Shown here: positions 7,670 to 49,704 of the stretch, one piece after another
Numbering within the stretch: the first letter of the stretch is position 1
Layout: each line of letters opens with the position of its first letter
Assembly (NCBI GenBank): GCA_011056555.1
Contig: DSEQ01000009.1
Coordinates: 16,281 to 80,280 of the forward strand
Direction of reading: 5' to 3'
From: Candidatus Zixiibacteriota bacterium
GTDB lineage: Bacteria > Zixibacteria > MSB-5A5 > JAABVY01
DNA: 64,000 nucleotides
Made by a program: the position numbers and the translations under genes
The notes under the pieces: model-generated
Told to the model about the DNA's origin: nothing
The model's input: only the letters and a program-made list of their open reading frames with translations
The model's database searches: none

Positions 7670-7671
7670 TT

Positions 7672-9912: not shown

Positions 9913-9921
9913 AAAAGTCAG

Positions 9922-10563: not shown

Positions 10564-10565
10564 AT

Positions 10566-32054: not shown

Positions 32055-33362
32055 ATGAATAGACCTGAATCATATCATGCTAATACCGTATGGGTTTTTA
32101 TTCTGACGCTCGTCGTTTTTACGGTTGTTTCCGTTCCGGCATTCTGTTACGAGATCGACACAACAAGAGTCCGCGAGAAGCCCGAAGAGAATATAACATT
32201 CGGGGAGGCGGTGCTGGCTGCGCCGTCATTCATCCTGAATCTCCCCTTCTGGGTGCTGAAAAATGTGTCCGATTTCACGGTAAACGAAATCGTCTATTCC
32301 AAACCCATTCAGGCGCTTTTTGCTTTGAAACTCAGGCCAATTTGGGGATTCTACCCCACAGGGGGCTATAATTCCAACGCCGGCGTTAAAGCTGGAATTG
32401 TCTATAGAGTAAAAGATCTTCTCTCGGAGGAGGAGGATTTTAAGGTCAAAGCCTCCTACTCCACCCACGACTACCAGACCTACAGCCTGAGATACAAGAT
32501 CATGCCTCAGAATTCCATATTCAATGAAGTGCATTTCAATTTTAGTTATAGACAGAAGCCCCGCGAAAGCTTTTATGGCATCGGTAACAGGACCTCAGAT
32601 GACAATGAGGTTGCCTTTAACCTCGAAAACGGATTCATGGGCTTCGGCTGGAACCATGAGATTTCCAGTCAGTTCTCAACCGGAGTTGACTTCTCCTACC
32701 GGATACTGAATATCTATGACGGGCAGGACCCATCATTGACCGGCTCTCTCGATTCTATCCAAGCAAAATTCGATCTCAGCGAGGATGAGCTGGCGAATGC
32801 ACGTGTTCTGACTGTGGGCATGAACCTGAAATATGATTGGCGCGACCACCCCGGGCAGACCACATCTGGAGGATACCACGCCCTTGAGCTGTCCTACAAC
32901 AGGGGCAGAGGACAACTTCAAGACCTTGAATATTTCCTGGCTTCGGTTAGTCTATATCAATTCATTCACATTTACAGGCAAAGAGTGCTGGTTCTTAATT
33001 TCCGCACGGAGACCATTGGCAAAACCGATGGATCGCCGGATTTGCCATTTTATCTGAGACCAGCACTGGGTGGTGAAGAGAGTCTGCATGGATATAAGGA
33101 GCATCGCTTCATAGATAATACAACCATGCTGGCGGCGGTAGAATACCGCTTTCCCCTCTTGCAGGGTGTGGACGGCTTATTGTTTTTTGAAGAGGGTAGA
33201 GTTTTTGATGATTTTTCTAAGGATTTCGATCTGAAAAACTGGCATTATTCTACCGGCATCGGTATCAGGTTGTGGGATCAGGAAGGCCTGAGATTAAACG
33301 GCTATGCTGCTTTCAGCAAAGAGAGTCCGCAATTTTACGTGCATTTGTCCGAAACACTCTAA
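32055..33362 (+). CDS. Omp85/bacterial surface antigen (D15) family outer-membrane barrel without recognisable POTRA domains
   Basis: 435 aa with an N-terminal signal-like helix. The C-terminal region LRPALGGEESLHGYKEHRFIDNTTMLAAVEYRFPL...STGIGIRL resembles the conserved Omp85 barrel end. Alternating beta-strand pattern throughout. Confidence 0.7.
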   Translation: MNRPESYHANTVWVFILTLVVFTVVSVPAFCYEIDTTRVREKPEENITFGEAVLAAPSFILNLPFWVLKNVSDFTVNEIVYSKPIQALFALKLRPIWGFYPTGGYNSNAGVKAGIVYRVKDLLSEEEDFKVKASYSTHDYQTYSLRYKIMPQNSIFNEVHFNFSYRQKPRESFYGIGNRTSDDNEVAFNLENGFMGFGWNHEISSQFSTGVDFSYRILNIYDGQDPSLTGSLDSIQAKFDLSEDELANARVLTVGMNLKYDWRDHPGQTTSGGYHALELSYNRGRGQLQDLEYFLASVSLYQFIHIYRQRVLVLNFRTETIGKTDGSPDLPFYLRPALGGEESLHGYKEHRFIDNTTMLAAVEYRFPLLQGVDGLLFFEEGRVFDDFSKDFDLKNWHYSTGIGIRLWDQEGLRLNGYAAFSKESPQFYVHLSETL

Positions 33363-33373
33363 GGATGCACATT

Positions 33374-35086
33374 ATGAAAAATTATATGAAAATATCTTTA
33401 TTGCTGCTGTCACTGATGCTTATGCTGGGTTGCAGCGGCTACAAACCAGTCTTGCAACCGGAGGGTCCCTACTGGGTTGACGACGATAAACAGGATATCC
33501 CGGAACCATCATCCAAGGACCCAAACTTAGCCTGGATGTCCATCAAGCGTTCCAGCTTCGACCAGATTGAAGACGGCCTCGATCTGGAACGGAATTTCAG
33601 GATTCTATCCGATGAGCGTGAAGAAGCGGCCAATATCAACAGTTTCGACGAGGTTCCCAACTGCACCTGGTTCACCAACCGTCATGGTTTCGCACGCATG
33701 ACTCCGGACGAGATCGCCGAAGGAGTCGATCTCACGCCGGGACCGGACACAAGCGGACCATGGCTTGTATTTCGTCCTAAGGTGCAGGGTACCACTCCCG
33801 GTTTCTGGATCGAGGATTCACGGGGAGATCAATATGTCATCAAATTCGACCCGAAGGGGTATCCTGAGATGGCTACGGCGGCGGCCGCCATGGCTTCCCG
33901 ATATTTCCATGCTTGCGGTTATAATGTGCCCCAGGAAACAATTGTATATTATCGTCCCGAAATCCTTCAGGTCAAAGAAGGGGTGAAGTTTGAAGACAAA
34001 GCTGGTGTGAAACGTGAATTCACTCAGCAGGACTTAGAGGATATTCTTAAACGAGTACATCACGAGCCGGACGGGAGAATTCGGTCACTGGCCTCGCTTT
34101 CTCTGGGAATTCATGGTAAAATCAAGGGCCCTTTCAGCTATAGCGGAAGACGGAGCGATGATCCCAATGACTGGTTCGATCACCAGGACAGGCGGGAATT
34201 GCGCGGGCTGTATGTCATCGGATCGTTCATAAATCATTATGACCTGAAGGACCAGAATTCCCTCGATATCTATGTGGAGGAAAACGGAAATAAATTTCTA
34301 AAGCATTTCCTGATCGATTTCGGTTCCACCTTCGGCTCTGACGGCCAGGGGCCAAAGCCGCCTATTAAGGGCTATGCCAATATGATCGATCTTCGTGACG
34401 CCTTCGTATCCCTGATAACTGTCGGCCTCAAGACATGGGACTGGCGGGGAGGTGGCGAGGTAATCTACCCATCCATCGGCTATTTCGAAGCGGATATCTT
34501 TCAGCCCGATAAGTTCGATCCGATCTACCCCAATCCCGCTTTTGAGGACAAAACCGACCGCGACTGCTACTGGGGAGCCAAAATCGTTATGGCATTCCGC
34601 GACAGTGATTTACGCGCCCTGATCGAAACCGGGCAGTATTCCAATCCCCAAGCCGAGGAATATCTGTTCGAAACCCTGAAAAAGCGCCGCGACAAGATTG
34701 GACGATTCTGGTTTTCAAAGGTCAATCCCCTGGATTATTTTGAAACGGAATATGCTGGCAGTGATCTCAGAATCAGGTTCGATGACCTGGGAATCAAATA
34801 CGAGCTCTGGCCCCAAGATGCGGTCTATGACTATGAAATCAGATACGGCAAGGAACTTATCCGCAAGGATCGGGTTAAAACTGGCGAAATAATTCTGACA
34901 CAGGATGATTTAAATCGCATGACCTCGGCATTTAAAGCCACGGATAAAAAAGAGGATTATATTTACAGGATGGATATCAGAACCACCAGAGGGAATGGTG
35001 ATCCGAGCAAGCCAACCCGATTGCATTTCTGGTATCATCATGATGAAAATAAATTCTCATTGGTGGGAGTCGAACATCTGGATTGA
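33374..35086 (+). CDS. Lipoprotein with a protein-kinase-like (PKL) fold signature
   Basis: Lipobox LMLGCSG (Cys codon at 33431). Kinase-like motifs are QYVIKF (Lys at 33842-33844), HYDLKDQN (34235-34258) and IDFG (DFG at 34316-34324). I chose the start at 33374 (AAGGA lies 8 nt upstream); 33365 and 33386 are alternatives. The track ORF start at 33272 overlaps the upstream gene. Confidence 0.6.
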   Translation: MKNYMKISLLLLSLMLMLGCSGYKPVLQPEGPYWVDDDKQDIPEPSSKDPNLAWMSIKRSSFDQIEDGLDLERNFRILSDEREEAANINSFDEVPNCTWFTNRHGFARMTPDEIAEGVDLTPGPDTSGPWLVFRPKVQGTTPGFWIEDSRGDQYVIKFDPKGYPEMATAAAAMASRYFHACGYNVPQETIVYYRPEILQVKEGVKFEDKAGVKREFTQQDLEDILKRVHHEPDGRIRSLASLSLGIHGKIKGPFSYSGRRSDDPNDWFDHQDRRELRGLYVIGSFINHYDLKDQNSLDIYVEENGNKFLKHFLIDFGSTFGSDGQGPKPPIKGYANMIDLRDAFVSLITVGLKTWDWRGGGEVIYPSIGYFEADIFQPDKFDPIYPNPAFEDKTDRDCYWGAKIVMAFRDSDLRALIETGQYSNPQAEEYLFETLKKRRDKIGRFWFSKVNPLDYFETEYAGSDLRIRFDDLGIKYELWPQDAVYDYEIRYGKELIRKDRVKTGEIILTQDDLNRMTSAFKATDKKEDYIYRMDIRTTRGNGDPSKPTRLHFWYHHDENKFSLVGVEHLD

Positions 35087-35089
35087 TTT

Positions 35090-36319
35090 GTGATCATGAA
35101 GGTAAGTATTTTTATACCCATATCAATTTTATGCCTGTTTCAGGCATTCACATCTCTCCATGCAGAATCCAATGATCCACATGCAATCAGTGGAAGTGAT
35201 TTTGATCATTTAATGAATATCCAGAATGTTGAATTACAGAATAAACTCGAGAATATATTTCCCGAGAGTGAAGGTTATCTGGTAAGCGGACCTCTGTGCG
35301 ACGATACGTTCGAGGACTCTGCGTATTTTTATTGCGGTGCGGTCAGGGTTATTTGCCCAAACCTTAAACTATATAAGCAAGGTATAGACATAGCCGCCGG
35401 CATGGACAGTCTCACTGCAATTACAGATTATCCGGATCCAAGCGGATCATACTATGCCTTTGAAAAATATTATACTTATCATAATGGTAACCTGGTCGAT
35501 ACGTTCAAGTTTGAAACCGCAAATTCCGTTCGGTACGAGCTTGCCTTAAATAAGGAGCTGATATTCAGCCCGCTTCGAAGTGATGTCATCCGCATGCCCG
35601 ATTCAGAACGTAAGGAAATGCATGATTATTTCCTTCAATATGACTCCGGGAATATTCCGGCAGAGCAGCTTTACATACATTACGTACCCTATATCATCGA
35701 GGGCTATCAGAATTACAAAGAGTTCCTTTTAAGTCATGCCGAGATCGATCTCGATTTCATAAGCGGCGTGACCGCCTTTGTACCCACTGAAGAAACTCTG
35801 CAATGGTTCAGGGAGAATGCTCCGCAGGAGGCATATCCCAATAAGGAAGCGTCCAAATTTGAGGAGGAAATTCATGAATTCTTCGAGCGCGGCGGTGATT
35901 TGCGCGTCATCCAGACTTTAACGAAAGAAGGCTTCGACACACTTCAAAGCGGGGAATATTTCTATGCTGTCAGCCCTGCATACAAAATTCGTTTTGGACG
36001 GGAGCTTTTGCGCGAGGAGGTCAAACGTATCGAAGAGGAAACGGGCAAGAAGGTCCCGCGCGCCAATCATGCCTTTTTATTCCCGGGCGAAGCGGTACTG
36101 ACCGCCGGGGCTTTCTGGATAGATACAGACAAGGAAAACAAGCTGGTCAAGGTCAATGCCCAGTCCGGCCATTATTTCTACAGCAATGTTTCCCCGACTA
36201 TCCGCGAGGATATCTCCGAACGTTCCGACCATTACCTGACCACGCTGGGTCATTTTTTCAAGGCCCTTGACAGCCTGCAAATTCCCTGCGATAAGATTCT
36301 CATAAGTAAACTCCAATGA
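35090..36319 (+). CDS. Hypothetical secreted protein (signal peptide, no recognisable domain), visibly AT-rich
   Basis: The N-terminal VSIFIPISILCLFQAFTSLHAESN looks like a signal peptide. The start is GTG at 35090 or ATG at 35096, 3-9 nt after the upstream stop. The ORF is long, with several Cys residues consistent with a periplasmic protein. Confidence 0.5.
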   Translation: MIMKVSIFIPISILCLFQAFTSLHAESNDPHAISGSDFDHLMNIQNVELQNKLENIFPESEGYLVSGPLCDDTFEDSAYFYCGAVRVICPNLKLYKQGIDIAAGMDSLTAITDYPDPSGSYYAFEKYYTYHNGNLVDTFKFETANSVRYELALNKELIFSPLRSDVIRMPDSERKEMHDYFLQYDSGNIPAEQLYIHYVPYIIEGYQNYKEFLLSHAEIDLDFISGVTAFVPTEETLQWFRENAPQEAYPNKEASKFEEEIHEFFERGGDLRVIQTLTKEGFDTLQSGEYFYAVSPAYKIRFGRELLREEVKRIEEETGKKVPRANHAFLFPGEAVLTAGAFWIDTDKENKLVKVNAQSGHYFYSNVSPTIREDISERSDHYLTTLGHFFKALDSLQIPCDKILISKLQ

Positions 36320-36340
36320 TGGCTTGAGCGGTAAGCGGAT

Positions 36341-37192
36341 ATGAAAAAAGTCGGCAGTTACAAGATATTATTGATTCTATCCATACTCTTTTTCTCCTTC
36401 CGGCCTTTACCGGCAGACGACCGTGAATATCTCTCCAGCACAGAGATCACTGGCATATCGGCCGGCTCGATTGCGCTGGGAGCCGCGGGGCTGTGGGCAC
36501 TCGATTTCGATAGCACCCGTCGTCCGGTAATTTCAGGCCCGGCGCCATGGGAAGAGTCGATTCAGCGTTTTCTGGGCGGGAGATACTATCCGGGCAAAAC
36601 CAACTGGCTGGACCACAGCTTCGGCTCTTCCATAACTCCCATTTTGATGGGCGGTTTGCTTCTGGGCGCCGATATCAGCTGGCCCCGGTATGATCGCGCC
36701 AAAGATGTCTGGCAGGATATGTTTTTGTACGGCGCGGGCCTTCTTGCAACCAAAGGCGTTACCGGGATCACCAAGGGTTTCTTCGCACGTCCGCGTCCCA
36801 TGGTCGCGCTTGAGCCTGAGCTTTACAACCGGAATAAAAATAATGATTACGCCCAGGATCGGGCTTCATTCTTCTCGGGTCATACCTCCAGCGCCTTTTT
36901 CTCCACCGCTTTTCTGAATATGCGCATCCGCCAGATCATGCGCCAGGAGATGACCTATAATGACTACAAGGACTGGCGCTGGCTGCCGCCGACAATCCTG
37001 TTCGGCTGGGCCTCCTACGTGGGCTACACCCGTATCGATGCTTATAAACACTATATAACCGATGTTGTTTTTGGAGCTCTGGCAGGATGGGTGATGGCGG
37101 AGCTGTTTTATCATTTCGGCGACAATATAGAAAAGCCCCGGGACTCATCATCAAGGGGCAAGGTTCTATTCAAAATAGGATTCAGCTTTTAG
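36341..37192 (+). CDS. PAP2-family (type 2 phosphatidic acid phosphatase-like) membrane phosphatase
   Basis: All three PAP2 motifs are present: KGFFARPRP (KxxxxxxRP), SGH (FFSGHTS) and RIDAYKHYITD (SRxxxxxHxxxD-like). Several TM helices. Confidence 0.8.
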   Translation: MKKVGSYKILLILSILFFSFRPLPADDREYLSSTEITGISAGSIALGAAGLWALDFDSTRRPVISGPAPWEESIQRFLGGRYYPGKTNWLDHSFGSSITPILMGGLLLGADISWPRYDRAKDVWQDMFLYGAGLLATKGVTGITKGFFARPRPMVALEPELYNRNKNNDYAQDRASFFSGHTSSAFFSTAFLNMRIRQIMRQEMTYNDYKDWRWLPPTILFGWASYVGYTRIDAYKHYITDVVFGALAGWVMAELFYHFGDNIEKPRDSSSRGKVLFKIGFSF

Positions 37193-37671
37193 ATAAATGT
37201 CTTCACGATCTCGGTCTGCAAACCCTGAAGCTCACCATAGGCCTTATTGATTTCCGCTATCTTCTCCTCCAGCTTTTTCATGAGCTTTTGTCTTTCGATG
37301 CCATTCCGAAGAACGATCAGGAGATCATCATTATCCCACGGTTTCTCAATATACTGGAACAGTCCGACGTCATTTATAGCCTTGATTGCATTTTCCTTGT
37401 CGGCATAACCGGTCAGAATAATACGAGGCACCTGGGGCCGCATCTCCTTGACCTTTGCCAGAAAGGATATCCCATCCATCTCCGGCATCAGATAATCGGA
37501 AATCACCACATCAATCTCATTCTTCTTGATATATTCCAGCGCGTCTTTCGCTGAGGTGAAGGTCTCGACAGTGTATTCCGTCTCGAGGCTCAAGAATGAA
37601 TTGAGGCTCGTCAGGACCATCTCTTCATCATCAACGATTACGACCGTGCTTTTCTCCTTATCATCAACCAT
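37189..37671 (-). CDS. Single-domain response regulator (REC) with a C-terminal coiled-coil
   Basis: VVIVDDEE...VVISDYLMPEMDG...ILTGYADKENAIKAIN contains the phospho-acceptor Asp context. The product is 160 aa. Confidence 0.85.
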   Translation of the reverse strand: MVDDKEKSTVVIVDDEEMVLTSLNSFLSLETEYTVETFTSAKDALEYIKKNEIDVVISDYLMPEMDGISFLAKVKEMRPQVPRIILTGYADKENAIKAINDVGLFQYIEKPWDNDDLLIVLRNGIERQKLMKKLEEKIAEINKAYGELQGLQTEIVKTFI

Positions 37672-37673
37672 CT

Positions 37674-38900
37674 CTATCTCCTGTCTGTGTTAATTTCGAT
37701 TCCGAACAGTGTAACATCATCACTATACACCCCGCCATTAAAATCACCCAGGGACTCCGCCAGGCCATTAATTATTTCCCCGCAGGCGGAGCTGCCTAAT
37801 TTCTTCAAGACTTCGGGCAGATTTTTGCTTTCAAAAAAGTCTCCATCCTTGTTGACCGCCTCGGTCAGTCCGTCAGTATATAATATCAAACTGTTGCCCG
37901 GGTCAAGCATTACTGCTTTATCCGGCCCCGGCTTATACATTTCCGGTCTTATAAAGCCCAGCATCATACCGTTAGACGCAACCAGTTCCGATTTGTTTTC
38001 CTGCTTGCGAATAAGATACGGATAAGTCAAGCCGCCGTTAGATATGGTGATCTCCCTTTTGCCCGGATCGATCCTGGCAACCAGTGCCGCCACATAGAGT
38101 TCCTCCGGGAGGCCCTTCTCCAGGATTTCGTTCATGCCGCTCAGGATTTGCGAGGGTTGATGGTTTCCTCCGGCAAATGATACGAAGGCGAATTTCAGAA
38201 GCGCGGTGCTCAGAGCCGCCTGTATGCCATGCCCGGTGGCATCCGCCACCAATACCGACCAGCAGCCGTCCTGCATCGGTATGATATCATAAAAATCACC
38301 GCCAATCTCTATCGCCGGCTTATAGTAAGTTTCAAATTTCACGCCGTCAATTTGGGGAAGTTTACGCGGCAGCAATGCCTGCTGGAGCTTGCGGGCAAGC
38401 TTCAGCTCACGTGCAATCATATTGTTGTGTTCAAAGAGCTCATCACGATGTCTCAGGACTTCATCCAGCTCCTTGATCTTCATGTGCAGATGCTCTCTCA
38501 GGCTCTTGGATTCAATAGCATTTTTGAGAACCAGCTTAAGCTGTTCATTGTCCCATGGTTTTTCCAGGTACTGGAACAGGCTTACCTCGTTGATGGCCTT
38601 GATGGCATTTTCCTTGTCGGCATAACCGGTAAGAAGAATCCGGGGCAGGTCGGGATACATTTCCCGCACTGCACTCAAAAACTGCAGACCGTTCATATCC
38701 GGCATCAGGAAATCGGATATAACCACATCCACCGGCTTCTGCTTCAGCCGCTCCAGAGCCTCATGCGGTGACTGGTAGCCGATCACATTGTATTCGGTCT
38801 CCAGTTCCAGAAAAGATCCCAGGCTCTGCACCACAATCTCATCGTCATCGACCAGCATTATGGTTTTTGACGATCTCTCATCCATATTACTATCGCTCAT
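37674..38900 (-). CDS. Response regulator fused to a PP2C/SpoIIE-type phosphatase (RsbU-like)
   Basis: The N-terminal REC domain is paralogous to the downstream gene. The C-terminal part has GGDFYDIIP...LVADATGHGIQAAL...LYTDGLTEA, which are SpoIIE/PP2C motifs. Confidence 0.9.
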   Translation of the reverse strand: MSDSNMDERSSKTIMLVDDDEIVVQSLGSFLELETEYNVIGYQSPHEALERLKQKPVDVVISDFLMPDMNGLQFLSAVREMYPDLPRILLTGYADKENAIKAINEVSLFQYLEKPWDNEQLKLVLKNAIESKSLREHLHMKIKELDEVLRHRDELFEHNNMIARELKLARKLQQALLPRKLPQIDGVKFETYYKPAIEIGGDFYDIIPMQDGCWSVLVADATGHGIQAALSTALLKFAFVSFAGGNHQPSQILSGMNEILEKGLPEELYVAALVARIDPGKREITISNGGLTYPYLIRKQENKSELVASNGMMLGFIRPEMYKPGPDKAVMLDPGNSLILYTDGLTEAVNKDGDFFESKNLPEVLKKLGSSACGEIINGLAESLGDFNGGVYSDDVTLFGIEINTDRR

Positions 38901-40480
38901 CGTCCTCGAATTGGAATTATGATTCTGAAGGTTGTACCCTGATTCACTCTGGATTCGACCTCGATTCGGCCCTTATGGTCCTCAGTTATCTGGTGAACGA
39001 TCGAAAGCCCCAGGCCGGTTCCGACCCCGGCGCCTTTGGTTGTATATCCCGGATCAAATACCCGTTCCAGTTTATCCTCGGGAATTCCGCGGCCGGTATC
39101 GGAAAATTCAATAACAGCATCGCCGCCCTGGCGGCGTGTTCTGATAATAATCTTACCTTTATCCTCGATAGCCTGGCTGGCATTGACCAGTATATTCATA
39201 AAGACCTGGTTAAGCTGGTTGGGATAGCAGCTTATCTTCGGCAAATCCCCATAATCCTTTTCAACTTCCACCCGATCCTTGAGCTGGTGATGCACCAGTG
39301 TCAACGTATTTTCTATGCCGTCATGGATATTTACAGTATCCATTTCCGCCTGGTCGAGGCGGGCGAATTTGCGCAGGCTGCTGACAATATTGATTATTCG
39401 GGAAGAGGCTGTTTTATTGATCCGGGTGAGATCTTCCATATTTTCCAACAGCTTACCGAGCTGCTTGCTTTCACGAAATTCGGTCGGCGCAGCAGAATCG
39501 GAGACCATGGCCTTCAGCTTCTCGATAGAGCGGATGAAAAGATCGTTGTTGCTGTTGAGTGCTCCCAATGGCGTATTGATTTCGTGGGCTACGCCCGCCA
39601 CCAGATTACCGAGGGCAGCCATTTTTTCCGCCTGCACCAGCTGCGTCTGTTTCTGTCGCAGCTCCCTTGTCCGTTCCTCCACCTTCTGCTCGAGCTCCTC
39701 GTTAGCTTTTTTCAGCTCCTGCTCAAGCCGGTATCGGGTCGTAACGTCCTGCACAATATTCAGTTCGCGCCAGTTATGTTTAATATCCCGAAAATAGCCG
39801 GTGGTGAACTGGTAAACTCTGTTGTTGGGAAATATCCTCTCCTCCACATAGACGCCGTCCTCGCTCAGGATCTGCTCGCTTTCCACCCGCTGATCGTCAA
39901 TAGACTGCTCCCAACCGCATGGGCAGCCCTCATCCCGGGCCCGGTCAAAAATCTCTTTCAGCTTTTTATTCTCAAATTCAACTTTCGGTTCGCCATTTAT
40001 ATTCTTACGTACCCCCAGACCGACCGGCATTAGATCAAGAATATATTCATAATATTCGCGCAGGCGTCTATTCTCCCTCTGCAAAAGAACGCGACTTGTT
40101 ATGTCACGGCAAATACGCTGAATGATCTTCTTGTCCCCGTAATTTATGACTCCTGCGGAAATTTCTATATCCAGGAGGGTCTTATCTTTTCGCAGAAAAT
40201 GCAGTTCGCCGGTATAGCCCTTACCGCTTTCCACCACCTGGTTAAAAAGCCGCCTGGATTCCTCCCACTCAGATTCGGGATGGAGTTCCCAGACTTTCTT
40301 ACCCACTAACTCGTCAACGCTGAAGCCGGTCAGCTTCTCGGCCCTGAGATTCGCCTCCAGTATGGTGCCGTCAGCCGGTTCGATCGAAAAGATGGCGTCG
40401 CTGGCCATCTCGATCATCTTGCGGTATTTCTCTTCCGACTCCCGCAGGCTTTTTAAATCGGAGTTATCTGCCTTAACCAT
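38897..40480 (-). CDS. PAS-domain sensor histidine kinase
   Basis: Two PAS-like segments, the HisKA H-box AGVAHEINTPLGAL, and an HATPase_c domain with an N box (NILVNASQA) and G boxes (DTGRGI, GTGLGLS). Confidence 0.9.
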   Translation of the reverse strand: MVKADNSDLKSLRESEEKYRKMIEMASDAIFSIEPADGTILEANLRAEKLTGFSVDELVGKKVWELHPESEWEESRRLFNQVVESGKGYTGELHFLRKDKTLLDIEISAGVINYGDKKIIQRICRDITSRVLLQRENRRLREYYEYILDLMPVGLGVRKNINGEPKVEFENKKLKEIFDRARDEGCPCGWEQSIDDQRVESEQILSEDGVYVEERIFPNNRVYQFTTGYFRDIKHNWRELNIVQDVTTRYRLEQELKKANEELEQKVEERTRELRQKQTQLVQAEKMAALGNLVAGVAHEINTPLGALNSNNDLFIRSIEKLKAMVSDSAAPTEFRESKQLGKLLENMEDLTRINKTASSRIINIVSSLRKFARLDQAEMDTVNIHDGIENTLTLVHHQLKDRVEVEKDYGDLPKISCYPNQLNQVFMNILVNASQAIEDKGKIIIRTRRQGGDAVIEFSDTGRGIPEDKLERVFDPGYTTKGAGVGTGLGLSIVHQITEDHKGRIEVESRVNQGTTFRIIIPIRGR

Positions 40481-40508
40481 ATTTTCATATCCGGTCCCGG
40501 CGCCGATG

Positions 40509-40937
40509 TCAGGCTACTCGTTCGACCAAATTCCTGAGCCTCTTTACCACAGTCTTGATTACGCCCTGCGCAATCTGCACATGGTCGGCCAGCAGATCGA
40601 TGAAATCCTCGCGGTCGACACGAAGCAGACGGCAGTCTGCGGCCGCGGTTGCGGTTACCACTCTCGGCTCCTCATCAAAAAGAGCCCAGGTACCAAAGGC
40701 ATCGTCTTTTTCTGCAGTGGAAATTTCCTGGTCGCCTCTGTGCAGCTTCACCTTGCCCTCCAGCACAAGGTAGAGCGCATCCGAGGGATCATGTTCCTTG
40801 TAGATCACGTCCCCCTTGATATATTCCACTTCCTCTGCTATCGAGGCCAGAGAGGCCAGCTGCTCGGTGGGCACTTCCGAGAAAACATCGATATTCTGCA
40901 AAAGAATTACTTTTTCAACAATAGAAAGCATACTCAA
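40509..40937 (-). CDS. Stand-alone cyclic-nucleotide-binding (CAP/cNMP) domain protein
   Basis: 142 aa. GDVIYKEHDPSDALYLVLEGKVKL...FGTWALFDEEPRVVTATAAADCRLL follows the cNMP beta-roll and phosphate-binding-cassette pattern. Confidence 0.8.
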   Translation of the reverse strand: MSMLSIVEKVILLQNIDVFSEVPTEQLASLASIAEEVEYIKGDVIYKEHDPSDALYLVLEGKVKLHRGDQEISTAEKDDAFGTWALFDEEPRVVTATAAADCRLLRVDREDFIDLLADHVQIAQGVIKTVVKRLRNLVERVA

Positions 40938-40986
40938 TACTCTTTATTTAAACAACGTCATTTCCACATCAAAGTTCTTACAGGCA

Positions 40987-43758
40987 CTATGTTTCAAACC
41001 GCTTAACCACTCTTTCCGCAGTCTCCTTTACCAATGGGTCGGGATCATTTTGAGCGTCGTGGATTAGCTTCCTCATATTCTCGGAAGCATTAGCGGTAAC
41101 ATTATAGATCGCACAACACCTGAGCCAATTATCGTGACCCTTGATAAGGCGCTCCAGGGCTTCCTCCCGGGTACGGGTCTTGACACGGAAAAACTCCTCG
41201 CCTTTGCGAAGCACTGTTTCGACCGGAACATCATCGAGTATCGGGAGAATATATTTCTTTACGTCGCGACTCAGGAGATTATCGAGAAACTCGATAGCAT
41301 TGGCCTGAAGCACCTTTTTGCCGCTCACGAACCCCTGATAGGCATAAAATATGTCTGTGGGAGGATAGACCAGACCCAGGAGCCGGAATATCCGTTCGAG
41401 GTTGTACTGCTGTTTTTCTTCCAGCGCCTTTTTCAGGAGTTTGGAACCCGGTGATTCATCGAATTGCCTGTGGGAATATAGGATCTGGTAAATTTCATAA
41501 TAATCCTTGATTTCATTCAGAAGGACCTGTTCCACCTTCCCATGGTCAAAGCTGAGCTCCGAATAGACGCTTCGCAGGCTGTTCAGGGCTTTGACCACAT
41601 GATATTTCAGGGAGGGTTCCACCTTATCCAGGTTGTCGGTCAAAACATCAACTGTCTCCTGCTCAGGAATCAGCTTCATCACCCTTGGTATATTTTTGCG
41701 AATATTGTAATCGACTGCGCGGTCGTGCAGGTAATCGCTGAGGGTCCCCAGCACGCCTGTTCCGAAATCGGCCAGCGCTTTGCGAACATTTGCGCGCAAA
41801 TCCCTGTCGGTCAATCTCTCGATCAGCCAGGGTATATATTTGCGCCGTTTCAAACGGCCGATGCATTCTATCGCATTTTTCACCACCTCGATCGACTTAT
41901 CATTAAGCAGAATCTCTATGTAGCCGCTGAATTCCGGTTTGTTCACCACGCCCAGAATCCGGGCGACCTGAATACGGCTCAATTCCGCCTCCTCAGATAT
42001 ATCGCGCATGGCCGCCTTTATGAGTTCCTCATCGACCAGCTCCCTTTCCTCCGGACGGCCATAATCGGTAAGATATGCCAGAGCTGCATTGACTATGCGA
42101 GGGTCATCGCTGCGCAGGTATTCCCGCAGTTTTTCCAGAGTATCTCCCTCGGTTCGGGAGCATATGAAGTGCACGGCCTCCGAACGGACCTCAATGTCCT
42201 CATCAGTCAGCATCTTCTCTACTATCTCCATATGCGAGCGGTCGCCATGCTCGAGAAGCACCTTCAGCGCATCGAGCCTGATGTCGGCCGACTCATGCCT
42301 CAAATGAGGAACTACTTTTTCCACCCTCTCAACATTCTTCACCGAACGCAGCATCTCCAGCGCATATCCAATCTGCCGATCATTGGGGCTGTCCAGCGAA
42401 TTTATCAGCGCATTGATGGTGGAGCGGTCATCGATCTGAACGGTGAGCCTGGAATAGTCGATCTCGCGCTTTTCAATGGCTCTGCGGAATGAATTCAGAT
42501 ATTCCTTCCGCATGAAGACAGTCAGGGTTAACCAGATAAGCAGTAATCCAATCACGATCAGACTGATTTCCTTTACCGTCAGATGAAAGACGAGGGTGCA
42601 GAGAAGCAGAAGGGCGCCGGCAAATCCGCGGAACCACCTGTCCACGAACATATCGATAAATATTTTTGTGCGCTTTTTTACCTCCAGCGGTATGGGCAAA
42701 AACAGCAATTCCCTGCCGGTCTTGTCCATAGAATATTTTATACTGCCATCCACTCCCCTCAGCATTATACCGGCAATCAAGCCGGGGAAGAGAAACATCG
42801 CCGCTGAGCCAAGCAATAATCCCGTCGGCAGAAACATAATGATACCGCCCACCCCCAAAAAGCGAATTAGCCTGTATGTAAAAAACAATTGCAGTATTAG
42901 TGAAGCCATGCTGAGCCAGCTGTAGAACTGTCCGAAGAATGATGTCAGATCAGCTTTTTCCGGATAAGCAGCTTTGGATACGGTTTTGAACTGCCAATCC
43001 ACAAATGAAGCCACCATCATGGTTATAGCTATAATACCCACAAGCAATAACAGGTGGCGTGACCTGAAAATCGTCTTTGTAATCTGCCCCAGCTTTTCCC
43101 CGGGGGGCTCGCGATGGCGAGCGGAACGCTGAAGTTCCTTCTCCGAAACAGTCTTCTTCTTCCAGATTACGGCTACCAGTAAAGCTACAATTACGAGCGG
43201 TACCATACAGATAAATAAGAGGTTTTCCGTGCCTACATCCAGGGCCTTGACGAGGAAACTGGTGACCTGTCCACCGGTGAAGGCGCCGATAATCCCCCCC
43301 AGTCCGAGTAATGTGAAGACTCGTTTGGCCTGTGCAGAATTATACACGGCATTGGCCAGAAGCCAGAATTGGGAGGTCGTAAGCACGCCATAGATGCTCA
43401 CCCATGTATAAAATAGATAATAAACCCAGGCGCTGGAGATCTGGACCAGCCAGCGCAGAATAAAAAGATTCACTATAATAATGGCAAGAGTGAAAATAAT
43501 CAGTCGATTCAGCTTCAACGAACGGCTGGCCCTGGAATAAAGTGTAACAACAGGAGCGGTCACCAGGGCGGTGATAATGAAAACAAGCGGGAGCATCTCC
43601 GAACTGACCCTCACCAGAAACAGCGAATCCCTGGCGGGTTTAAGCAGGTAATAGCTCAAAAGGATCAGGTAATAACTGGACAGCATCAGCAGGGTCAGTG
43701 CGATTTCACCCTTCCTGATGTCAAATATCGATTTGAGAAAACTCTTCATCGAATTCAT
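40987..43758 (-). CDS. TLC/AAA-family (ATP:ADP antiporter-like, MFS-type) membrane domain fused to a C-terminal HEAT-repeat domain
   Basis: 923 aa. The N-terminal LLSYYLLKPARDSLFL resembles the TLC-family start and is followed by ~11-12 TM segments. The C-terminal ~480 aa carry repeated HEAT-like units (ADIRLDALKVLLEHGD, DEDIEVRSEAVHFI, DPRIVNAALAYL, DPLVKETAERV). Confidence 0.7.
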   Translation of the reverse strand: MNSMKSFLKSIFDIRKGEIALTLLMLSSYYLILLSYYLLKPARDSLFLVRVSSEMLPLVFIITALVTAPVVTLYSRASRSLKLNRLIIFTLAIIIVNLFILRWLVQISSAWVYYLFYTWVSIYGVLTTSQFWLLANAVYNSAQAKRVFTLLGLGGIIGAFTGGQVTSFLVKALDVGTENLLFICMVPLVIVALLVAVIWKKKTVSEKELQRSARHREPPGEKLGQITKTIFRSRHLLLLVGIIAITMMVASFVDWQFKTVSKAAYPEKADLTSFFGQFYSWLSMASLILQLFFTYRLIRFLGVGGIIMFLPTGLLLGSAAMFLFPGLIAGIMLRGVDGSIKYSMDKTGRELLFLPIPLEVKKRTKIFIDMFVDRWFRGFAGALLLLCTLVFHLTVKEISLIVIGLLLIWLTLTVFMRKEYLNSFRRAIEKREIDYSRLTVQIDDRSTINALINSLDSPNDRQIGYALEMLRSVKNVERVEKVVPHLRHESADIRLDALKVLLEHGDRSHMEIVEKMLTDEDIEVRSEAVHFICSRTEGDTLEKLREYLRSDDPRIVNAALAYLTDYGRPEERELVDEELIKAAMRDISEEAELSRIQVARILGVVNKPEFSGYIEILLNDKSIEVVKNAIECIGRLKRRKYIPWLIERLTDRDLRANVRKALADFGTGVLGTLSDYLHDRAVDYNIRKNIPRVMKLIPEQETVDVLTDNLDKVEPSLKYHVVKALNSLRSVYSELSFDHGKVEQVLLNEIKDYYEIYQILYSHRQFDESPGSKLLKKALEEKQQYNLERIFRLLGLVYPPTDIFYAYQGFVSGKKVLQANAIEFLDNLLSRDVKKYILPILDDVPVETVLRKGEEFFRVKTRTREEALERLIKGHDNWLRCCAIYNVTANASENMRKLIHDAQNDPDPLVKETAERVVKRFET

Positions 43759-44596
43759 GCCCTCGGCTCTGTACGTAAGATATTAACTAAGCTATATCAG
43801 ATCTATAATCAAGCAATTTATCCGGGTCTGCCGACAATGTCACGGCATATTTTGCCCTTCACCCCTTTTGGAATCAGCATAAGTACTGCCCTCGTGTGGT
43901 TTTCCACTTCAACGCCTAAAGTGGTAAAACACGGATCAAGAGTTTTGTCGATGATGTCTGTCGGTCTCCCGCCGCCGGGACCCGATATTTCCACAAATAT
44001 ACAGTCTTTGTTCAAAAATGTCCTAATTTAAATTTTACCAATTCCACTGTGTAATGCAGACAGGGATGCTTTTTGATTTCTTCATTTGATATTAAATCCC
44101 GCAATTTTCTATGGCCCGATTTGGAATAATATAAAGCATTACTCAGTAACATCTCAATCTCTTTTTTCAAGGGCAGGCAATATTTTAGACTGGATGCGCC
44201 CTCAGAAATCGCGCTGATGGATTCCTTTTAATGAATTCGAAATGAAGTTGAGACCCCAGACAGAAGATACATAACTGCAAGTCTCCCAACAGAATTATCT
44301 ACAGTACCGGAAACGTATTTTTCGGAAAATAATATGGAGACCCTCTGAATCGGGGCGGGATATATGTTCGGATGATATTCGGATTCTATTCCTGCTTCGC
44401 TCGTAAAGATGTTTCAGGTGGGATCAGGGTTTGCTTTTAATGAAATTCTAATGATGGCCTAACATCATTTGGACAAAACAGACGTTATTACTTCAAGTTT
44501 TGACAGATAACATGGTCAAGGGAATAATGGTTTTGATAATTTTTAAAGCTGATATCTGGTAGGCATTCATATCAGATTTATTTTTATGGAGGTTGT

Positions 44597-47527
44597 ATGA
44601 AACAACAGGTAATGAGGTATTGTGCAACATGCGCCGGTACACGACTGCCTTTACTGCTGATAATAGTGTTCGCGGTTCTCTGCCTGACTCAAACAGACCC
44701 GTTATATGCTGCACAGAAGGCCGGCAAGATAAGCGGCAAGATTCTAGATGCTGAAACCGGCGAGCCCCTGCCGGGAGCGGTGGTTCAGATCAAACTTGAA
44801 AGCAGTACAATTGGCGCACAGACGGATTTTGACGGAAATTATCTCATTCGAGAGGTTCCCGTCGGTATTCACGCCCTGGAGATTTTCCTGGCCGGATACC
44901 GAAACACCGTTGTACGAGAGGTCCGGGTAAATTCTGAGGAGGTGACCAATGTGCCCCTGGCACTTCATGCCGAGGCATATGAAGACGAGGAACAGGTTGT
45001 GGAGGCCCGGGTCCTGCCGAATAACGAGGCTGTCCTGCTAATGGAACGCCAGAAGGCGCCCGAGATCGGGAATGCTATCTCGGCTGAGGCAATGTCCAAT
45101 TCCGGCGCCTCGGATGCCGGTGAAGCAATTGCCAAGATCGCCGGAGGTACGATGCAGGGCGGAAAATATGCCAACCTGCGCGGCCTGGAAGAAAGGTATA
45201 TTTCCACCCATCTGAATGGGACCGAACTGGCCAGCGCCGATCCGGATAAAAAGGCTTTTCACATGGACCTGATTCCGACCAATCTCCTGGATAATGTTCA
45301 GGTCATCAAGTCATTCACTCCGGACAGACCCGGTAATTTCTCCGGCGGAATTATAGATATCGGTACCAAGACTTATCCCGAGCAGCTTTCACTTAAGTTC
45401 TCGGTTTCCAGCACCTATAGCTCGGGGGCTTCGTACAATGACAATTTCCTGACCTACCGGGGCGGCAACGATGACTGGCTCGGTTTTGATGACGGTACCA
45501 GGGATGTACCCGATCCTGTCTCCGGCACCGAGCTTCCGCTTTATTCGTATACTATTAATAGTCCCGAAACTGCCCATTCTCTGAGTGAATTGACGAGGTC
45601 ATTCAACAGTGTCATGTCCCCGATTTCCAAAGCTCCGCCGTTAAACAGCGACTACTCCTTCTCGCTCGGCAATCAGACCACCCTTTTCGGGAAGCGGTTA
45701 GGCTACCAGGGCAGTTTCAATTACGGGAGAAAGTACAATTATTATGATGGCGGGCGCCTGGCCTATTATTTCGTATCAGGAGACCCATCCGTTATAGAGG
45801 GCTTGACAAATGACTGGAGAATGTCGGATGCCAGGGGCTCGGAAGAGGTTCTCTGGGGAGGATTGTTTGCAACCTCATATCATATCCATCCCAACCATGA
45901 GTTCGGCGCCGATTACGTTCACACCCAGAGCGGTGAGAACATGGCGCGCTACATTTCAGGGCACTTCTACGACGGCAACCTCTCACCCGAGGCAACCTAT
46001 GAAACACGAGTTTTAAGGTATACCGAGCGTACTCTGAATTCCCTGCAATTCCACGGCAAACACTATCTTCCCGGCCTCTTCAGATCCAATCTCGACTGGA
46101 ATTACTCCTACTCCCGGAACGAGCAGGATGAGCCGGATATGCGCTTCTTCTCGAACCATTTCTATGTCGACGAGGAGAGCGGCGATACCAGCTATTATAT
46201 AGCCCCCAACCTTTACACGCTGCCCCAGAGATATTACCGGGAGCTTGATGAAAATAGCAGCAGCTTCGATATCAACTGGAGTATCCCATTTAAGCAGTGG
46301 AACGGTCAGTCCAGCAAATTCAAATTCGGCGGGCTGTTCTCACAGAAAAACCGGGATTTCCTTGAAAGAGTCTACAATTTCAAAAACCCTGCAAATAAAT
46401 ATGAGTACAACGGCGACCCATCGGAATTCTTCAGCCCTGAAAACCTGGGAATCATCGACAGTACCTTCAATCCCTACAGCCAGACCTGGAGATACGACTG
46501 GACACTTTATGTCTACGACAACTCCGACCCGCGTGCCAATTATACCGGTGATGAAAGTATCAGCGCTTTCTATGGCTTGCTCGACATACCCCTTTCAACC
46601 AGATTGCGTGTGATAGCCGGCGCCAGGTTCGAAACTACTGGAATTGAGGTGGCTCCAGTCGATACCAGTTATGAAAGCGGCTCAATCGATACCGATGATC
46701 TCCTGCCATCCGTTAACCTGACCTATGCGCTCAATAAAAAGATGAACCTTCGTGCCGCCTACGGGCGCACACTGGCGCGCCCCACCTTCCGTGAAATGGC
46801 GCCCTACCCGTCATGGGATTTCGCCAATGAATTCTATTTCATTGGCAATCCCGAACTGATGAGAACGCTGATAGACAATTTTGATGTCCGCTGGGAGTAT
46901 TTCATAAGGCCCGGCGAGCTTCTTGCTCTCAGCTTATTCTATAAGGACTTCCAGAATCCAATCGAACGGGCTATCAAACATGAGAACGGCGAAATCCAGT
47001 ACCAGAATGTCGATCAGGCGACCGTCTATGGAATAGAATTCGAGATAAGAAAGAACCTGGATGTCTTAACCGGATGGCTCCGAAATTTTACGATAACATC
47101 GAACCTGACCTTGATCAATTCGCAGGTCGATATACCGGAAACAGAGCTGGACATCATCAGATCCTATGATCCCGATGCAGATGATACCAGGCCTCTTCAG
47201 GGCCAGTCGCCCTACATCCTGAATATCGACCTTACTTATGACAACCATAGAACCGGTACTATGGCCAATCTCTCATTCAATGTCTTCGGCGAGAGGCTTT
47301 ACGAAGTCAGCCAGGGAGCTACTCCTGATGTTTATGAGCAATCCCGGCCGGACCTGAAACTCATCCTGAAGCAGGGACTCTTTGGCGGAATCGATTTAAG
47401 GTTGAAATTCAGCAATATCCTCAATCCATCATATAAGAACGTCCATCATTTCCGCGGCGATGATTACATCAGAATGGAACATAAAGAGGGCCGCAGATTC
47501 TCGATCGGATTGAGTTATAGCATATAG
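44597..47527 (+). CDS. TonB-dependent receptor with an N-terminal carboxypeptidase-regulatory-like domain
   Basis: Signal peptide, then GKILDAETGEPLPGAVVQI...TDFDGNYLIREVPVG (CarboxypepD_reg), a plug region (YANLRGLEERYISTHLNG) and a long beta-barrel ending RRFSIGLSYSI. Confidence 0.9.
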   Translation: MKQQVMRYCATCAGTRLPLLLIIVFAVLCLTQTDPLYAAQKAGKISGKILDAETGEPLPGAVVQIKLESSTIGAQTDFDGNYLIREVPVGIHALEIFLAGYRNTVVREVRVNSEEVTNVPLALHAEAYEDEEQVVEARVLPNNEAVLLMERQKAPEIGNAISAEAMSNSGASDAGEAIAKIAGGTMQGGKYANLRGLEERYISTHLNGTELASADPDKKAFHMDLIPTNLLDNVQVIKSFTPDRPGNFSGGIIDIGTKTYPEQLSLKFSVSSTYSSGASYNDNFLTYRGGNDDWLGFDDGTRDVPDPVSGTELPLYSYTINSPETAHSLSELTRSFNSVMSPISKAPPLNSDYSFSLGNQTTLFGKRLGYQGSFNYGRKYNYYDGGRLAYYFVSGDPSVIEGLTNDWRMSDARGSEEVLWGGLFATSYHIHPNHEFGADYVHTQSGENMARYISGHFYDGNLSPEATYETRVLRYTERTLNSLQFHGKHYLPGLFRSNLDWNYSYSRNEQDEPDMRFFSNHFYVDEESGDTSYYIAPNLYTLPQRYYRELDENSSSFDINWSIPFKQWNGQSSKFKFGGLFSQKNRDFLERVYNFKNPANKYEYNGDPSEFFSPENLGIIDSTFNPYSQTWRYDWTLYVYDNSDPRANYTGDESISAFYGLLDIPLSTRLRVIAGARFETTGIEVAPVDTSYESGSIDTDDLLPSVNLTYALNKKMNLRAAYGRTLARPTFREMAPYPSWDFANEFYFIGNPELMRTLIDNFDVRWEYFIRPGELLALSLFYKDFQNPIERAIKHENGEIQYQNVDQATVYGIEFEIRKNLDVLTGWLRNFTITSNLTLINSQVDIPETELDIIRSYDPDADDTRPLQGQSPYILNIDLTYDNHRTGTMANLSFNVFGERLYEVSQGATPDVYEQSRPDLKLILKQGLFGGIDLRLKFSNILNPSYKNVHHFRGDDYIRMEHKEGRRFSIGLSYSI

Positions 47528-47574
47528 TGAATAATTACTGATACACTAATTTTATAAATATTATAGGAGGAAAC

Positions 47575-48990: not shown

Positions 48991-49017
48991 CAGGAGTGAT
49001 GCCACTTAGATGTTTCT

Positions 49018-49050
49018 ATATGGGACCCTTATCAGGTCCCATATTTTTAA
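49018..49050 (+). terminator. Rho-independent terminator after the lipoprotein gene
   Basis: Perfect 10-bp stem ATATGGGACC / GGTCCCATAT, a 7-nt loop, then TTTTAATTTT. Confidence 0.7.
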
Positions 49051-49173
49051 TTTTATTTAACATGGAATAAAGTTTGGCGGAACAATTCTATTGCTTTTGA
49101 TATTTTACATTTCTAATATTTGGTTGACGTAAGAGAAACCCATAAACTCCATAATCTTTTAAAGGAGGTACTG

Positions 49174-49704
49174 ATGCTCAAGAAGCTAACAATTATCGCT
49201 ATCGCACTGATTCTGGTTATTCCGGTAATCGGGAATGCCAAGGATCTCACAGGACGGTTCAGTCTGGGTTATTTTGATTCCGATGCCCCGGTTGGATTCC
49301 GTTACTGGGTGAATGATAAAATCGGCCTCGACCTCGGCCTGGGATTTGAATCGGTCGACCTGGGTGAAGAGAACGGGACCTCATTCTGGGTTGAAGCGGG
49401 AGTCCCCTATGTTGTCTACCCGACTGACAGGGCCAATTTCTTCATCCGTCCCGGTGTTGTCTTTGCAAGTCTCGACAACCGCGTTTACGGTTCGGGTCCC
49501 CTGGATGAGAAGTGGACAGTATTCACAATATTATTGACCCCGGGAGCTGAGGTCTTTTTCGGTGACCATTTTTCGCTGCAGGCGGCGCATGGCTTTGCAT
49601 TAAGAATCACCTCTCCTCCGGATGAGATTAGCGATGAATCTTCAACCGATTTCAGCTCGATTGCCGCAAGCGTCACGACTATCGGCTTCCATTTCTATTT
49701 TTAG
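49174..49704 (+). CDS. Small outer-membrane beta-barrel protein
   Basis: The start at 49174 follows AAAGGAGG. Signal peptide KKLTIIAIALILVIPVIGNA, alternating beta-strand pattern, and a C-terminal IGFHFYF ending in aromatic Phe. Confidence 0.6.
   Translation: MLKKLTIIAIALILVIPVIGNAKDLTGRFSLGYFDSDAPVGFRYWVNDKIGLDLGLGFESVDLGEENGTSFWVEAGVPYVVYPTDRANFFIRPGVVFASLDNRVYGSGPLDEKWTVFTILLTPGAEVFFGDHFSLQAAHGFALRITSPPDEISDESSTDFSSIAASVTTIGFHFYF

Follow-up and report, generated by a model that had tools for sequence, protein, structure and literature searches.

The locus described here raises the question of whether a membrane carrier encoded among signalling proteins is the sensor or the regulated target of those proteins. 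It lies in a 64,000-nucleotide (nt) stretch, hereafter the window, of contig DSEQ01000009.1 from a Candidatus Zixiibacteriota bacterium, in which five co-directional minus-strand open reading frames (ORFs) span positions 37189-43758. The first encodes a carrier of the NTT/TLC family joined to a HEAT-repeat solenoid (NTT-HEAT), and the others encode a small cyclic-nucleotide-binding-domain protein (cNBD), a histidine kinase, a response-regulator phosphatase in which a receiver domain (REC) precedes a PP2C domain (REC-PP2C), and a 160-residue single-domain response regulator (REC160). A survey of related loci revealed a constant core of carrier, cNBD, and REC160, served by near-constant, interchangeable kinases and in some lineages by REC-PP2C as an accessory. 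This distribution speaks for a carrier that is the target of regulation more than for one that acts as sensor.

Both the fusion and its pairing with a cNBD, pointed out in the earlier note on this DNA, were already known. NTT-HEAT fusions were described as monophyletic, "very broadly conserved", and present in free-living bacteria, with a cultured sampling that comprised cyanobacteria, Chlamydiae, Deltaproteobacteria, and oomycetes; the cNBD gene was seen often to follow "at a distance of several nucleotides" or to be fused, and no function was assigned (Major, Embley & Williams 2017, Genome Biol Evol 9:480; PMC5381601). Judged by its architecture, the window protein appears to belong to this NTT-HEAT(-cNBD) family, since PF03219 is followed by PF13646/PF02985 HEAT repeats and the cNBD gene lies immediately downstream, whereas the window and its relatives come from uncultured lineages (Zixibacteria, Latescibacteria, and others). 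That paper contains no occurrence of "response regulator" and no mention of histidine kinases, PP2C, or Omp85-like, lipoprotein, or phosphoesterase neighbours (PMC5381601), and no paper in the literature searched ties NTT-HEAT to two-component genes. The link to REC160 and interchangeable kinases, and a second set of neighbouring genes, thus appear to be undescribed. The literature searched also held no functional characterisation of the fusion, in line with what the earlier note had supposed, and later papers that mention NTT-HEAT give no function.

The operon and its NTT-HEAT carrier

The six-frame ORF list gives the spacing between successive genes as 49, 28, -4, and 2 nt, exactly as first read from the sequence. 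The features of the cluster, with lengths in amino acids (aa) and transmembrane abbreviated as TM, are as follows.

40987..43758, minus strand: NTT-HEAT gene (923-aa ORF; TLC and HEAT_2 by Pfam; AlphaFold model)
42463..43758, minus strand: 12-TM NTT/TLC carrier domain, residues 1-432 (model helices, Foldseek, sequence matches to 9j3n and 9j3j)
40993..42426, minus strand: HEAT/ARM-like alpha-solenoid, residues 445-922 (HEAT_2 and HEAT, model, fold matches, conservation profile)
40509..40937, minus strand: stand-alone cNMP-binding-domain protein (140-142 aa; Pfam cNMP_binding)
38897..40480, minus strand: soluble PAS(-PAS-like)-HisKA-HATPase histidine kinase (527 aa; Pfam PAS_9, HisKA, HATPase_c)
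37674..38900, minus strand: REC-PP2C (SpoIIE-type) response-regulator phosphatase (408 aa; 4-nt overlap with the kinase gene)
37189..37671, minus strand: REC160 single-domain response regulator (160 aa; Response_reg)

Public gene calls start NTT-HEAT at Met4 (43749), with a GAGG motif ~11 nt 5' of that ATG, and this is the probable start, giving a protein of 920 aa. The cNBD gene begins 49-55 nt downstream of NTT-HEAT; its ORF runs for 142 aa from a TTG, and gene callers pick the ATG at 40931, which yields 140 aa. A public protein of 920 aa (P0001) is 100% identical to NTT-HEAT, and an independent public contig (L001) carries the identical five-gene set. A public protein that matches REC160 at 100% identity is labelled candidate division Zixibacteria. 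Counts of consensus terminators and promoters in 36900-44700 lay within shuffle expectation, with no excess inside the cluster, which is compatible with a single operon.

The N-terminal domain of NTT-HEAT matched TLC (PF03219; TC 2.A.12) with 76.2 bits against a cut-off of 21 over residues 101-420, while MFS_1 reached only 24 bits, under its own cut-off. An AlphaFold model built on 41 homologues (mean predicted local distance difference test score, pLDDT, 83.5) placed 12 TM helices at residues 16-432 and an alpha-solenoid at 445-922. The top three Foldseek matches in the PDB were 9j3m, 9j3n, and 9j3l, with TM-scores of 0.72-0.75 normalised to target, and the remaining MFS matches listed (VMAT2, SPNS2, SLC45A4, NorA) stood at 0.61-0.69. 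Of these top structures, 9j3m and 9j3l are AtNTT1 and 9j3n is Chlamydia pneumoniae NTT1; sequence matches to 9j3n and 9j3j were found as well. Profile score and fold match together identify the modelled domain as a true NTT relative, so that the TLC assignment of the earlier note was upheld over its own alternative, an unrelated MFS family. AtNTT1 and C. pneumoniae NTT1/Npt1 (9j3j/l/m, 9j3n/o) share with the window protein the 12-TM fold and motifs in TM1, TM4-5, TM7, and the TM10-11 loop, but at 17-19% identity, and NTT-HEAT differs from them in its additional 480-residue solenoid and in belonging to a free-living host with complex I.

The substrate of such a domain cannot simply be read from its family name. 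Several NTT motifs are retained (LKPARD, QAKR, FK, KYS..K..E..F.P, and K..K..ID), as are basic NTT residues (K40/R43, K145/R146, K258, K361/K365, and R377). Mutagenesis of AtNTT1, attributed to Trentmann et al. in 2000, reportedly found K155, E245, E385, and K527 to be needed for ATP/ADP exchange. These residues were located in chain 9j3j as K/E/E/K at an offset of 84, and the HMMER alignment, anchored on the flanking P57, FY116-117/G124, FK257-258, and ID368-369, places them at F60, S121, D254, and R377, respectively. Among the 41 homologues no change occurs at S121 or R377, and F60 and D254 are almost invariant. Two of the four charged residues are thus conservatively kept and two lost. The window protein also scored 56.1 bits against TIGR00769, the profile of canonical ATP/ADP exchangers, whose cut-off is 387.2. 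Because K155 and E245 are replaced and the TIGR00769 score is low, nucleotide transport is not to be assumed, and NTT-HEAT is probably not a canonical ATP/ADP exchanger; the general statement that TLC carriers exchange nucleotides, made in the earlier note, does not transfer directly to this protein. The TM core is nevertheless strongly conserved and is the second most conserved part of NTT-HEAT. A constrained core with retained basic NTT motifs fits an active carrier of an anionic solute, which need not be ATP or ADP.

The C-terminal half of NTT-HEAT matched HEAT_2 in four stretches (83.6 bits) as well as HEAT in Pfam, and the fold matches of the solenoid were PR65/PP2A-A, importin-alpha, and alphaRep, by Foldseek and also by a sequence-level search. 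A patch at approximately residues 781-840 is conserved to the same degree as the TM core. Since the solenoid comes after TM12, the 12-TM NTT topology would place it in the cytoplasm; cNBD, kinase, REC-PP2C, and REC160 have neither signal peptide nor TM segment, so all of these parts would lie on the cytoplasmic side.

The constant core across phyla

Synteny was surveyed in 35 non-redundant loci whose carrier domains are 37-85% identical to that of the window. Fifteen of the loci came from GTDB genomes, 10 from metagenomes, and 10 from exact-protein look-ups, and all were scored by phmmer with the window domains on six-frame ORFs. Their metagenome-assembled genomes (MAGs) are labelled Zixibacteria, Latescibacteria, Ignavibacteria/Ignavibacteriales, Krumholzibacteria, "Aminicenantes", and Calditrichia. 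Gene order, which the earlier note had allowed might be found in no relative, is conserved among them. The family reaches further: in a full HMMER scan, full-length NTT-HEAT was matched at E<=1e-30 by 2,987 representatives of 50%-identity clusters, including MAGs labelled Deltaproteobacteria, Marinimicrobia, and Flavobacteriales, and among the 150 best-scoring of these almost all are ~900-1100 aa in length.

A cNBD accompanies NTT-HEAT in 31 of the 32 loci that could be evaluated, immediately downstream in 23, fused in seven, and at 3.9 kb on the other strand in one; the sole evaluable locus without it is L020. REC160 is likewise present in 26 of the 29 loci having enough flank and is missing from L020, L028, and L030. 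A histidine kinase occurs in the cluster in 24/35 loci. REC-PP2C was found in eight of ~29, with one further copy 8 kb off in L007. In the closest relatives, L002 and L003 (80% identical), neither kinase nor PP2C intervenes between carrier, cNBD, and REC, and L012 similarly has carrier, cNBD, and REC160 without an adjacent kinase. The presence of REC-PP2C in so few loci, together with its absence from L002 and L003, marks this protein, which the earlier note took as the output, as an accessory branch.

In the Krumholzibacteria-type loci L023, L026, and L031 (~40% identical), the order is minimal kinase, NTT-HEAT-cNBD fusion, REC-PP2C, and REC; the NTT-HEAT-cNBD fusions of L023, L026, L027, L031, and L032 all retain kinase, REC-PP2C, and REC neighbours. 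Read as Rosetta stones, such natural fusions are evidence for an action of cNBD on the carrier's HEAT end. The Gemmatimonadales-type fused carriers of L028 and L030 have no two-component genes. These carriers, and the abundance of two-component genes in the genomes concerned, are what could be said for the signalling genes being chance co-transcribed neighbours with no functional link to the carrier. That explanation is extremely improbable and was rejected by the synteny survey, because an orthologous REC160 persists in 26 of 29 loci across phyla, through gene-order rearrangement and cNBD fusion.

REC160 is also the member of the module with the highest sequence conservation. Median identities over the loci are 74% for REC160, 64% for cNBD, 55% for TLC, 52% for the kinase core, 45% for PP2C, and 39% for HEAT. 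Wherever it stands beside NTT-HEAT, REC160 is 61-90% identical, while the carriers across these phyla are only 37-60% identical. Orthologues of 160 aa at 75-95% identity occur in >120 clusters, including MAGs labelled Aminicenantes and Calditrichia. When three REC160 orthologues were looked up in reverse, two lay directly behind NTT-HEAT and cNBD in other phyla.

A separate observation concerns gene content near the carrier. In two distant lineages (L020, 5481-6860; L035, 3982-5556), the stretch between NTT-HEAT and the lipoprotein gene described below encodes a second TLC/MFS paralogue of 459-524 aa that has no HEAT repeats.

Signalling partners and the direction of control

The cNBD protein matched cNMP_binding (PF00027) with 70.6 bits. 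Its phosphate-binding cassette, at residues 80-99, is the variant FGTWALFDEEPRVVTATA, and in the alignment all loci linked to a two-component system share the form FG(T/S)WALFD..PRV.TAT. Relative to the canonical Gly-Glu ... Arg-(Ser/Thr/Ala), the Gly is kept, the Arg is present in nearly all loci, and the Glu is replaced by an invariant Thr/Ser in the two-component-linked loci. The Gemmatimonadales-type fusions L028 and L030, which stand without kinase and REC, have lost the cassette Arg too. Epac also lacks this Glu, yet binds cAMP.

The window kinase is soluble, with no hydrophobic segment, and comprises PAS/PAS_9 (17-128), HisKA, and HATPase_c by Pfam. The domain calls of the earlier note (TLC, HEAT, cNMP, histidine kinase, REC-PP2C, and REC-only) were confirmed by Pfam save for its "double-PAS" architecture: Pfam finds one PAS domain only, and hhalign of residues 136-268 against the first PAS gave a probability of 0.8%, although region 139-262 terminates in a PAS-like DVTTR motif. 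The catalytic motifs of the kinase are present (H-box AHEINTPL, N/G boxes NILVNASQA, DTGRGI, and GTGLGL) and conserved in orthologues. A Cys-Pro-Cys motif in the PAS-like second region (GCPCGW, residues 184-190, with C186/C188) was considered as a functional feature and dropped, as it is not conserved in six aligned orthologues.

REC-PP2C matched Response_reg (89.6 bits) and SpoIIE (143 bits), and its metal motifs DxxGHG, DG, and DD are present. REC160 matched Response_reg with 99.4 bits and continues into a C-terminal helix of ~35 aa with no output domain. REC160 and REC-PP2C have paralogous receivers (E 2e-50), each including the linker helix, and both have receiver motifs (VDDD/VDDE, SDF/SDY, LTGY, and KPW) that are conserved in orthologues. 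The motifs on which phosphotransfer and PP2C catalysis depend are intact. Phosphotransfer from the PAS kinase to both REC160 and REC-PP2C is suggested by their shared operon.

These features are combined in a tentative proposal, which is offered as a possible account somewhat short of an even chance: the operon encodes a signal-controlled inner-membrane carrier on whose HEAT platform cNBD and REC160 dock and modulate transport. NTT-HEAT would be a 12-TM carrier whose anionic solute contains phosphate (a nucleotide or an organophosphate related to one, perhaps along with inorganic phosphate, Pi), and its cytoplasmic solenoid would be a docking platform for two dedicated small regulators. The cNBD would report a cytoplasmic (cyclic) nucleotide and bind the solenoid when loaded. 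REC160 would be phosphorylated by whichever kinase a lineage has recruited and bind the solenoid in its phosphorylated form; in the window the soluble PAS kinase likely responds to redox, energy, or a ligand in the cytoplasm. Carrier activity would then change when either regulator binds. REC-PP2C, as a REC160 paralogue served by the same kinase, would add a lineage-specific second output onto a phosphoprotein substrate.

The variety of the kinases bears directly on this proposal. Their inputs differ from locus to locus, comprising soluble PAS, 7TMR-DISM, SBP_bac_3-PAS-GAF-PAS, and HAMP-PAS-GAF-GAF, and kinases of 285-323 aa lack a sensor altogether. Variable inputs around a constant carrier, cNBD, and REC160 are the pattern expected if the carrier is the output. 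Moreover, a response regulator without an output domain, such as REC160, has to work through another protein, and none of its neighbours but NTT-HEAT and cNBD are constant. Known transporters provide precedents, as GlnK-AmtB and the PII-like SbtB-SbtA, in which SbtB binds cAMP/AMP, are systems in which small signal proteins plug or gate a co-encoded transporter. The NTT-HEAT module resembles them in that a small cytoplasmic protein, ligand-binding or modified, is encoded beside a transporter whose cytoplasmic face it is proposed to bind; it differs in using cNBD and REC instead of PII, and in the proposed docking on a fused HEAT solenoid.

The reverse direction, favoured in the earlier note, is that of a transceptor: NTT-HEAT would sense a nucleotide-type solute and control the kinase through its HEAT tail, with cNBD modulating and the RECs as output. 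This arrangement seems rather unlikely, although it has definite points in its favour. In L023-L027, L031, and L032, minimal kinases of 285-323 aa lie immediately upstream of the carrier gene with an overlap of 0-4 nt, and a kinase without a sensor needs an external sensing partner. A HEAT solenoid is a classic protein-docking scaffold, and the two replaced ATP/ADP-exchange residues are of the kind that can be lost in transporter-derived sensors. UhpC-UhpB, BceAB-BceS, and DctA-DcuS are established transporter-kinase co-sensing systems, in which a carrier is genetically coupled to a kinase as it is here, and the sensor-less Krumholzibacteria-type kinases fit them. The window itself does not, because its kinase is soluble with its own PAS, it encodes no DNA-binding response regulator, and its carrier is an NTT; the sensor-less kinase that is the hallmark of a transceptor occurs only in the fused-cNBD lineages. 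In the window, as in most loci from Zixibacteria and Latescibacteria, the kinase brings its own sensor; two kinases are present in some loci, and L002, L003, and L012 keep carrier, cNBD, and REC160 without an adjacent kinase. The outputs of a transceptor would be a REC-only protein and an often absent PP2C, with no target encoded nearby, and the TM core is conserved as expected of an active carrier.

A different role was considered for REC-PP2C, in which NTT would be an anchor or degenerate carrier, the HEAT domain would assemble kinase, RECs, and cNBD at the membrane, and PP2C would act on a distant STAS/anti-sigma target. Bacillus cereus RsbY, Pseudomonas RssB/HsbR, and SiaA are REC-PP2C regulators, and the window protein resembles them in its REC and SpoIIE-type PP2C, its intact metal motifs, and its supply by a histidine kinase. 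The PR65-like solenoid is a phosphatase scaffold in eukaryotes, and the L007 copy of REC-PP2C, 8 kb away, indicates that targets can be unlinked. Such a membrane-anchored scaffold is nonetheless improbable. REC-PP2C is missing from most loci, and its score falls far under NCBIfam equivalog cut-offs (111 bits against 700 for RssB). The PP2C/SpoIIE component of partner switching is present, but a STAS antagonist and HATPase_c_2 Ser kinase are not found alongside it: low-sensitivity phmmer searches with RsbV, SpoIIAA, and RsbW sequences gave no match in the window or ~38 loci, and these families are also missing from the Pfam gene lists of the window and related loci, in agreement with the earlier note. 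RsbY, RssB/HsbR, and SiaA differ from the window protein in this respect. A conserved TM core with NTT motifs is also unlike that of a mere anchor.

Several observations weigh against control of the carrier by cNBD and REC160. In L039, cNBD, PAS kinase, REC-PP2C, and REC form a transcription unit of their own, convergent with the carrier gene, and in the Krumholzibacteria-type loci it is a sensor-less kinase of 285-323 aa that is translationally coupled to the carrier gene. No NTT-HEAT gene lies within 9 kb of the third REC160 orthologue looked up in reverse (L037/L038), an orphan. REC160 is also much more conserved than HEAT, its presumed docking surface (74% against 39%), and this high conservation and the orphan orthologue suggest that REC160 may have another, more constrained partner. 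As to ligands and substrates, the cNBD cassette reads GT instead of GE, so that its ligand may be other than cAMP or cGMP, and the replacement of K155/E245 of AtNTT1 by Phe60/Ser121 with a TIGR00769 score far under cut-off weakens the case for a nucleotide-type substrate. Control of the carrier by its small partners remains the favoured direction, and the transceptor direction is less supported, because kinase inputs vary around a constant REC160, cNBD, and NTT-HEAT and the PAS domain of the window kinase gives it an input of its own.

Neighbouring envelope genes and the wider family

A second group of genes adjoins the module and converges on it in Zixibacteria; in the window, the PAP2 gene on the plus strand runs into the REC160 gene on the minus strand with overlapping stop codons. 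Its members, and the spacer at the other end of the operon, are listed below.

32055-33362, plus strand: Omp85-like outer-membrane protein (NCBIfam Omp85_fam, E 1e-21)
33374-35086, plus strand: 570-aa lipoprotein of no family (lipobox LGC)
35090-36319, plus strand: secreted 409-aa protein of no family (signal peptide)
36341-37192, plus strand: PAP2 phosphatase (PAP2 76 bits; KxxxxxxRP / SGH / RxxxxxHxxxD motifs)
43759..44596, no strand: intergenic spacer and presumed promoter region (838 nt), between the operon and a divergent TonB-dependent receptor gene

Thirteen loci have at least part of the 32055-37192 set beside their NTT-HEAT module, 10 have the Omp85-like and lipoprotein genes there, and PAP2 occurs in the window and seven loci. 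In Latescibacteria, Calditrichia, and other lineages the set lies upstream and co-directional; the Omp85-like and lipoprotein genes are upstream on the carrier strand in L007, L010, L020, L035, and the P0090 locus. L020 has both genes despite having no cNBD and no REC. Further neighbours relate to phosphate. Immediately upstream of NTT-HEAT, the Latescibacteria loci L007 (8712-10007) and L010 (8727-10007) encode a Metallophos (calcineurin-like) phosphoesterase of ~430 aa, whose gene overlaps that of the carrier by 4 nt in L010; the ORF-list starts overlap in L007 too. In L033, where genes for PhoU and a Na/Pi cotransporter are close by, a Metallophos gene (964-2268) lies two genes upstream of NTT-HEAT. 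Behind the REC gene, L027 and L031 have genes for a porin-like protein (~430 aa), PBP_like_2 (~140 aa), and a HAMP kinase.

The lipoprotein has invariant residues K157, E165, D290-x-K-x-x-N295, and D315-F-G within the motifs YxIKFDP, PE, NHxDxKxxN, and LIDFGS, an arrangement that resembles that of kinase catalytic residues and is a lead at the level of motifs. The window protein had no Pfam, NCBIfam, or PDB-profile match, the best Pfam match among its homologues was HipA_2 in a single member (E 0.06), and hhalign against PKA, HipA, and a eukaryotic protein kinase aligned only HxDxKxxN...DFG, with a probability of 4%. A single-sequence AlphaFold model was unusable (pLDDT 37).

These neighbours raise the possibility of an envelope or organophosphate module, in which NTT-HEAT, as the inner-membrane component, would work with the Omp85-like protein, the lipoprotein, and periplasm-facing phosphoesterases, either bringing in nucleotides or organophosphate from outside the cell or sending ATP or another nucleotide to the periplasm for use by the lipoprotein, and the signalling genes would tune it. 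In support, the Omp85-like and lipoprotein genes recur in 10 loci, in five of them upstream and co-directional, despite rearrangement between phyla, and one of these five, L020, has neither cNBD nor REC; the phosphate-related neighbours (Metallophos, PAP2, porin-O/P-like with PBP_like_2, and PhoU with the Na/Pi cotransporter) and the invariant K...E...HxDxKxxN...DFG-like motifs of the lipoprotein point the same way, and a plastid NTT co-transports Pi according to the title of PDB 9j3m. The neighbour set is, however, missing from approximately two thirds of the loci, the phosphate-related matches are heterogeneous and in part weak (Porin_O_P E 0.001), PAP2 could equally be a lipid phosphatase, and a kinase fold for the lipoprotein lacks support from Pfam and the PDB, with hhalign at <=4% and pLDDT at 37. 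A module of this kind is unlikely. A more specific form, in which the carrier would export ATP or another nucleotide to the periplasm for a kinase-like lipoprotein, with extracytoplasmic phosphorylation gated by the cNMP receptor and REC160 on HEAT, is very unlikely.

Upstream of the operon, the 838-nt spacer is unusually long, and a 65-aa ORF is annotated within 43759-44596 on the identical public contig. No Rfam riboswitch or leader RNA matched at gathering threshold in the whole window, and none matched at E<=1 in 43700-44650. The divergent TonB-dependent receptor gene (44597-47527, plus strand) keeps this position only in the close relatives L002-L004 and was dropped on that ground as a functional partner. 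It belongs to a plus-strand block at 44597-49704 that encodes the receptor with CarboxypepD_reg, a 471-aa lipoprotein (Beta_helix_4), and a 194-aa beta-barrel-like protein, and that is kept as a unit only in the closest relatives L002 and L003; a TonB gene follows at 50241-51059. The window is otherwise ordinary chromosomal sequence that includes genes for complex I, GlnRS, and PRPP synthetase. In the complex I (nuo) operon at 2-10979 (minus strand), NuoC and NuoD are fused (586 aa), and NuoG is long (898 aa) and has molybdopterin domains. The presence of complex I indicates a respiring, free-living host that is no energy parasite.

The significance of the module extends beyond this genome, because the family to which the carrier appears to belong spans cyanobacteria, pathogenic Chlamydiae, and oomycetes (PMC5381601). 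NTT-HEAT proteins indicate that transporters associated with "energy parasites" have a widespread role in free-living bacteria. The half-conserved exchange residues are a warning against the database label "ATP/ADP translocase", and the envelope and organophosphate gene set is a clue to the substrate. With REC160 and a cNMP-type receptor as constant partners of the carrier, binding and gating become directly testable. Gating of the carrier by REC160 and cNBD, if it occurs, would make this, to our knowledge, the first two-component system directly controlling an MFS-type nucleotide carrier.

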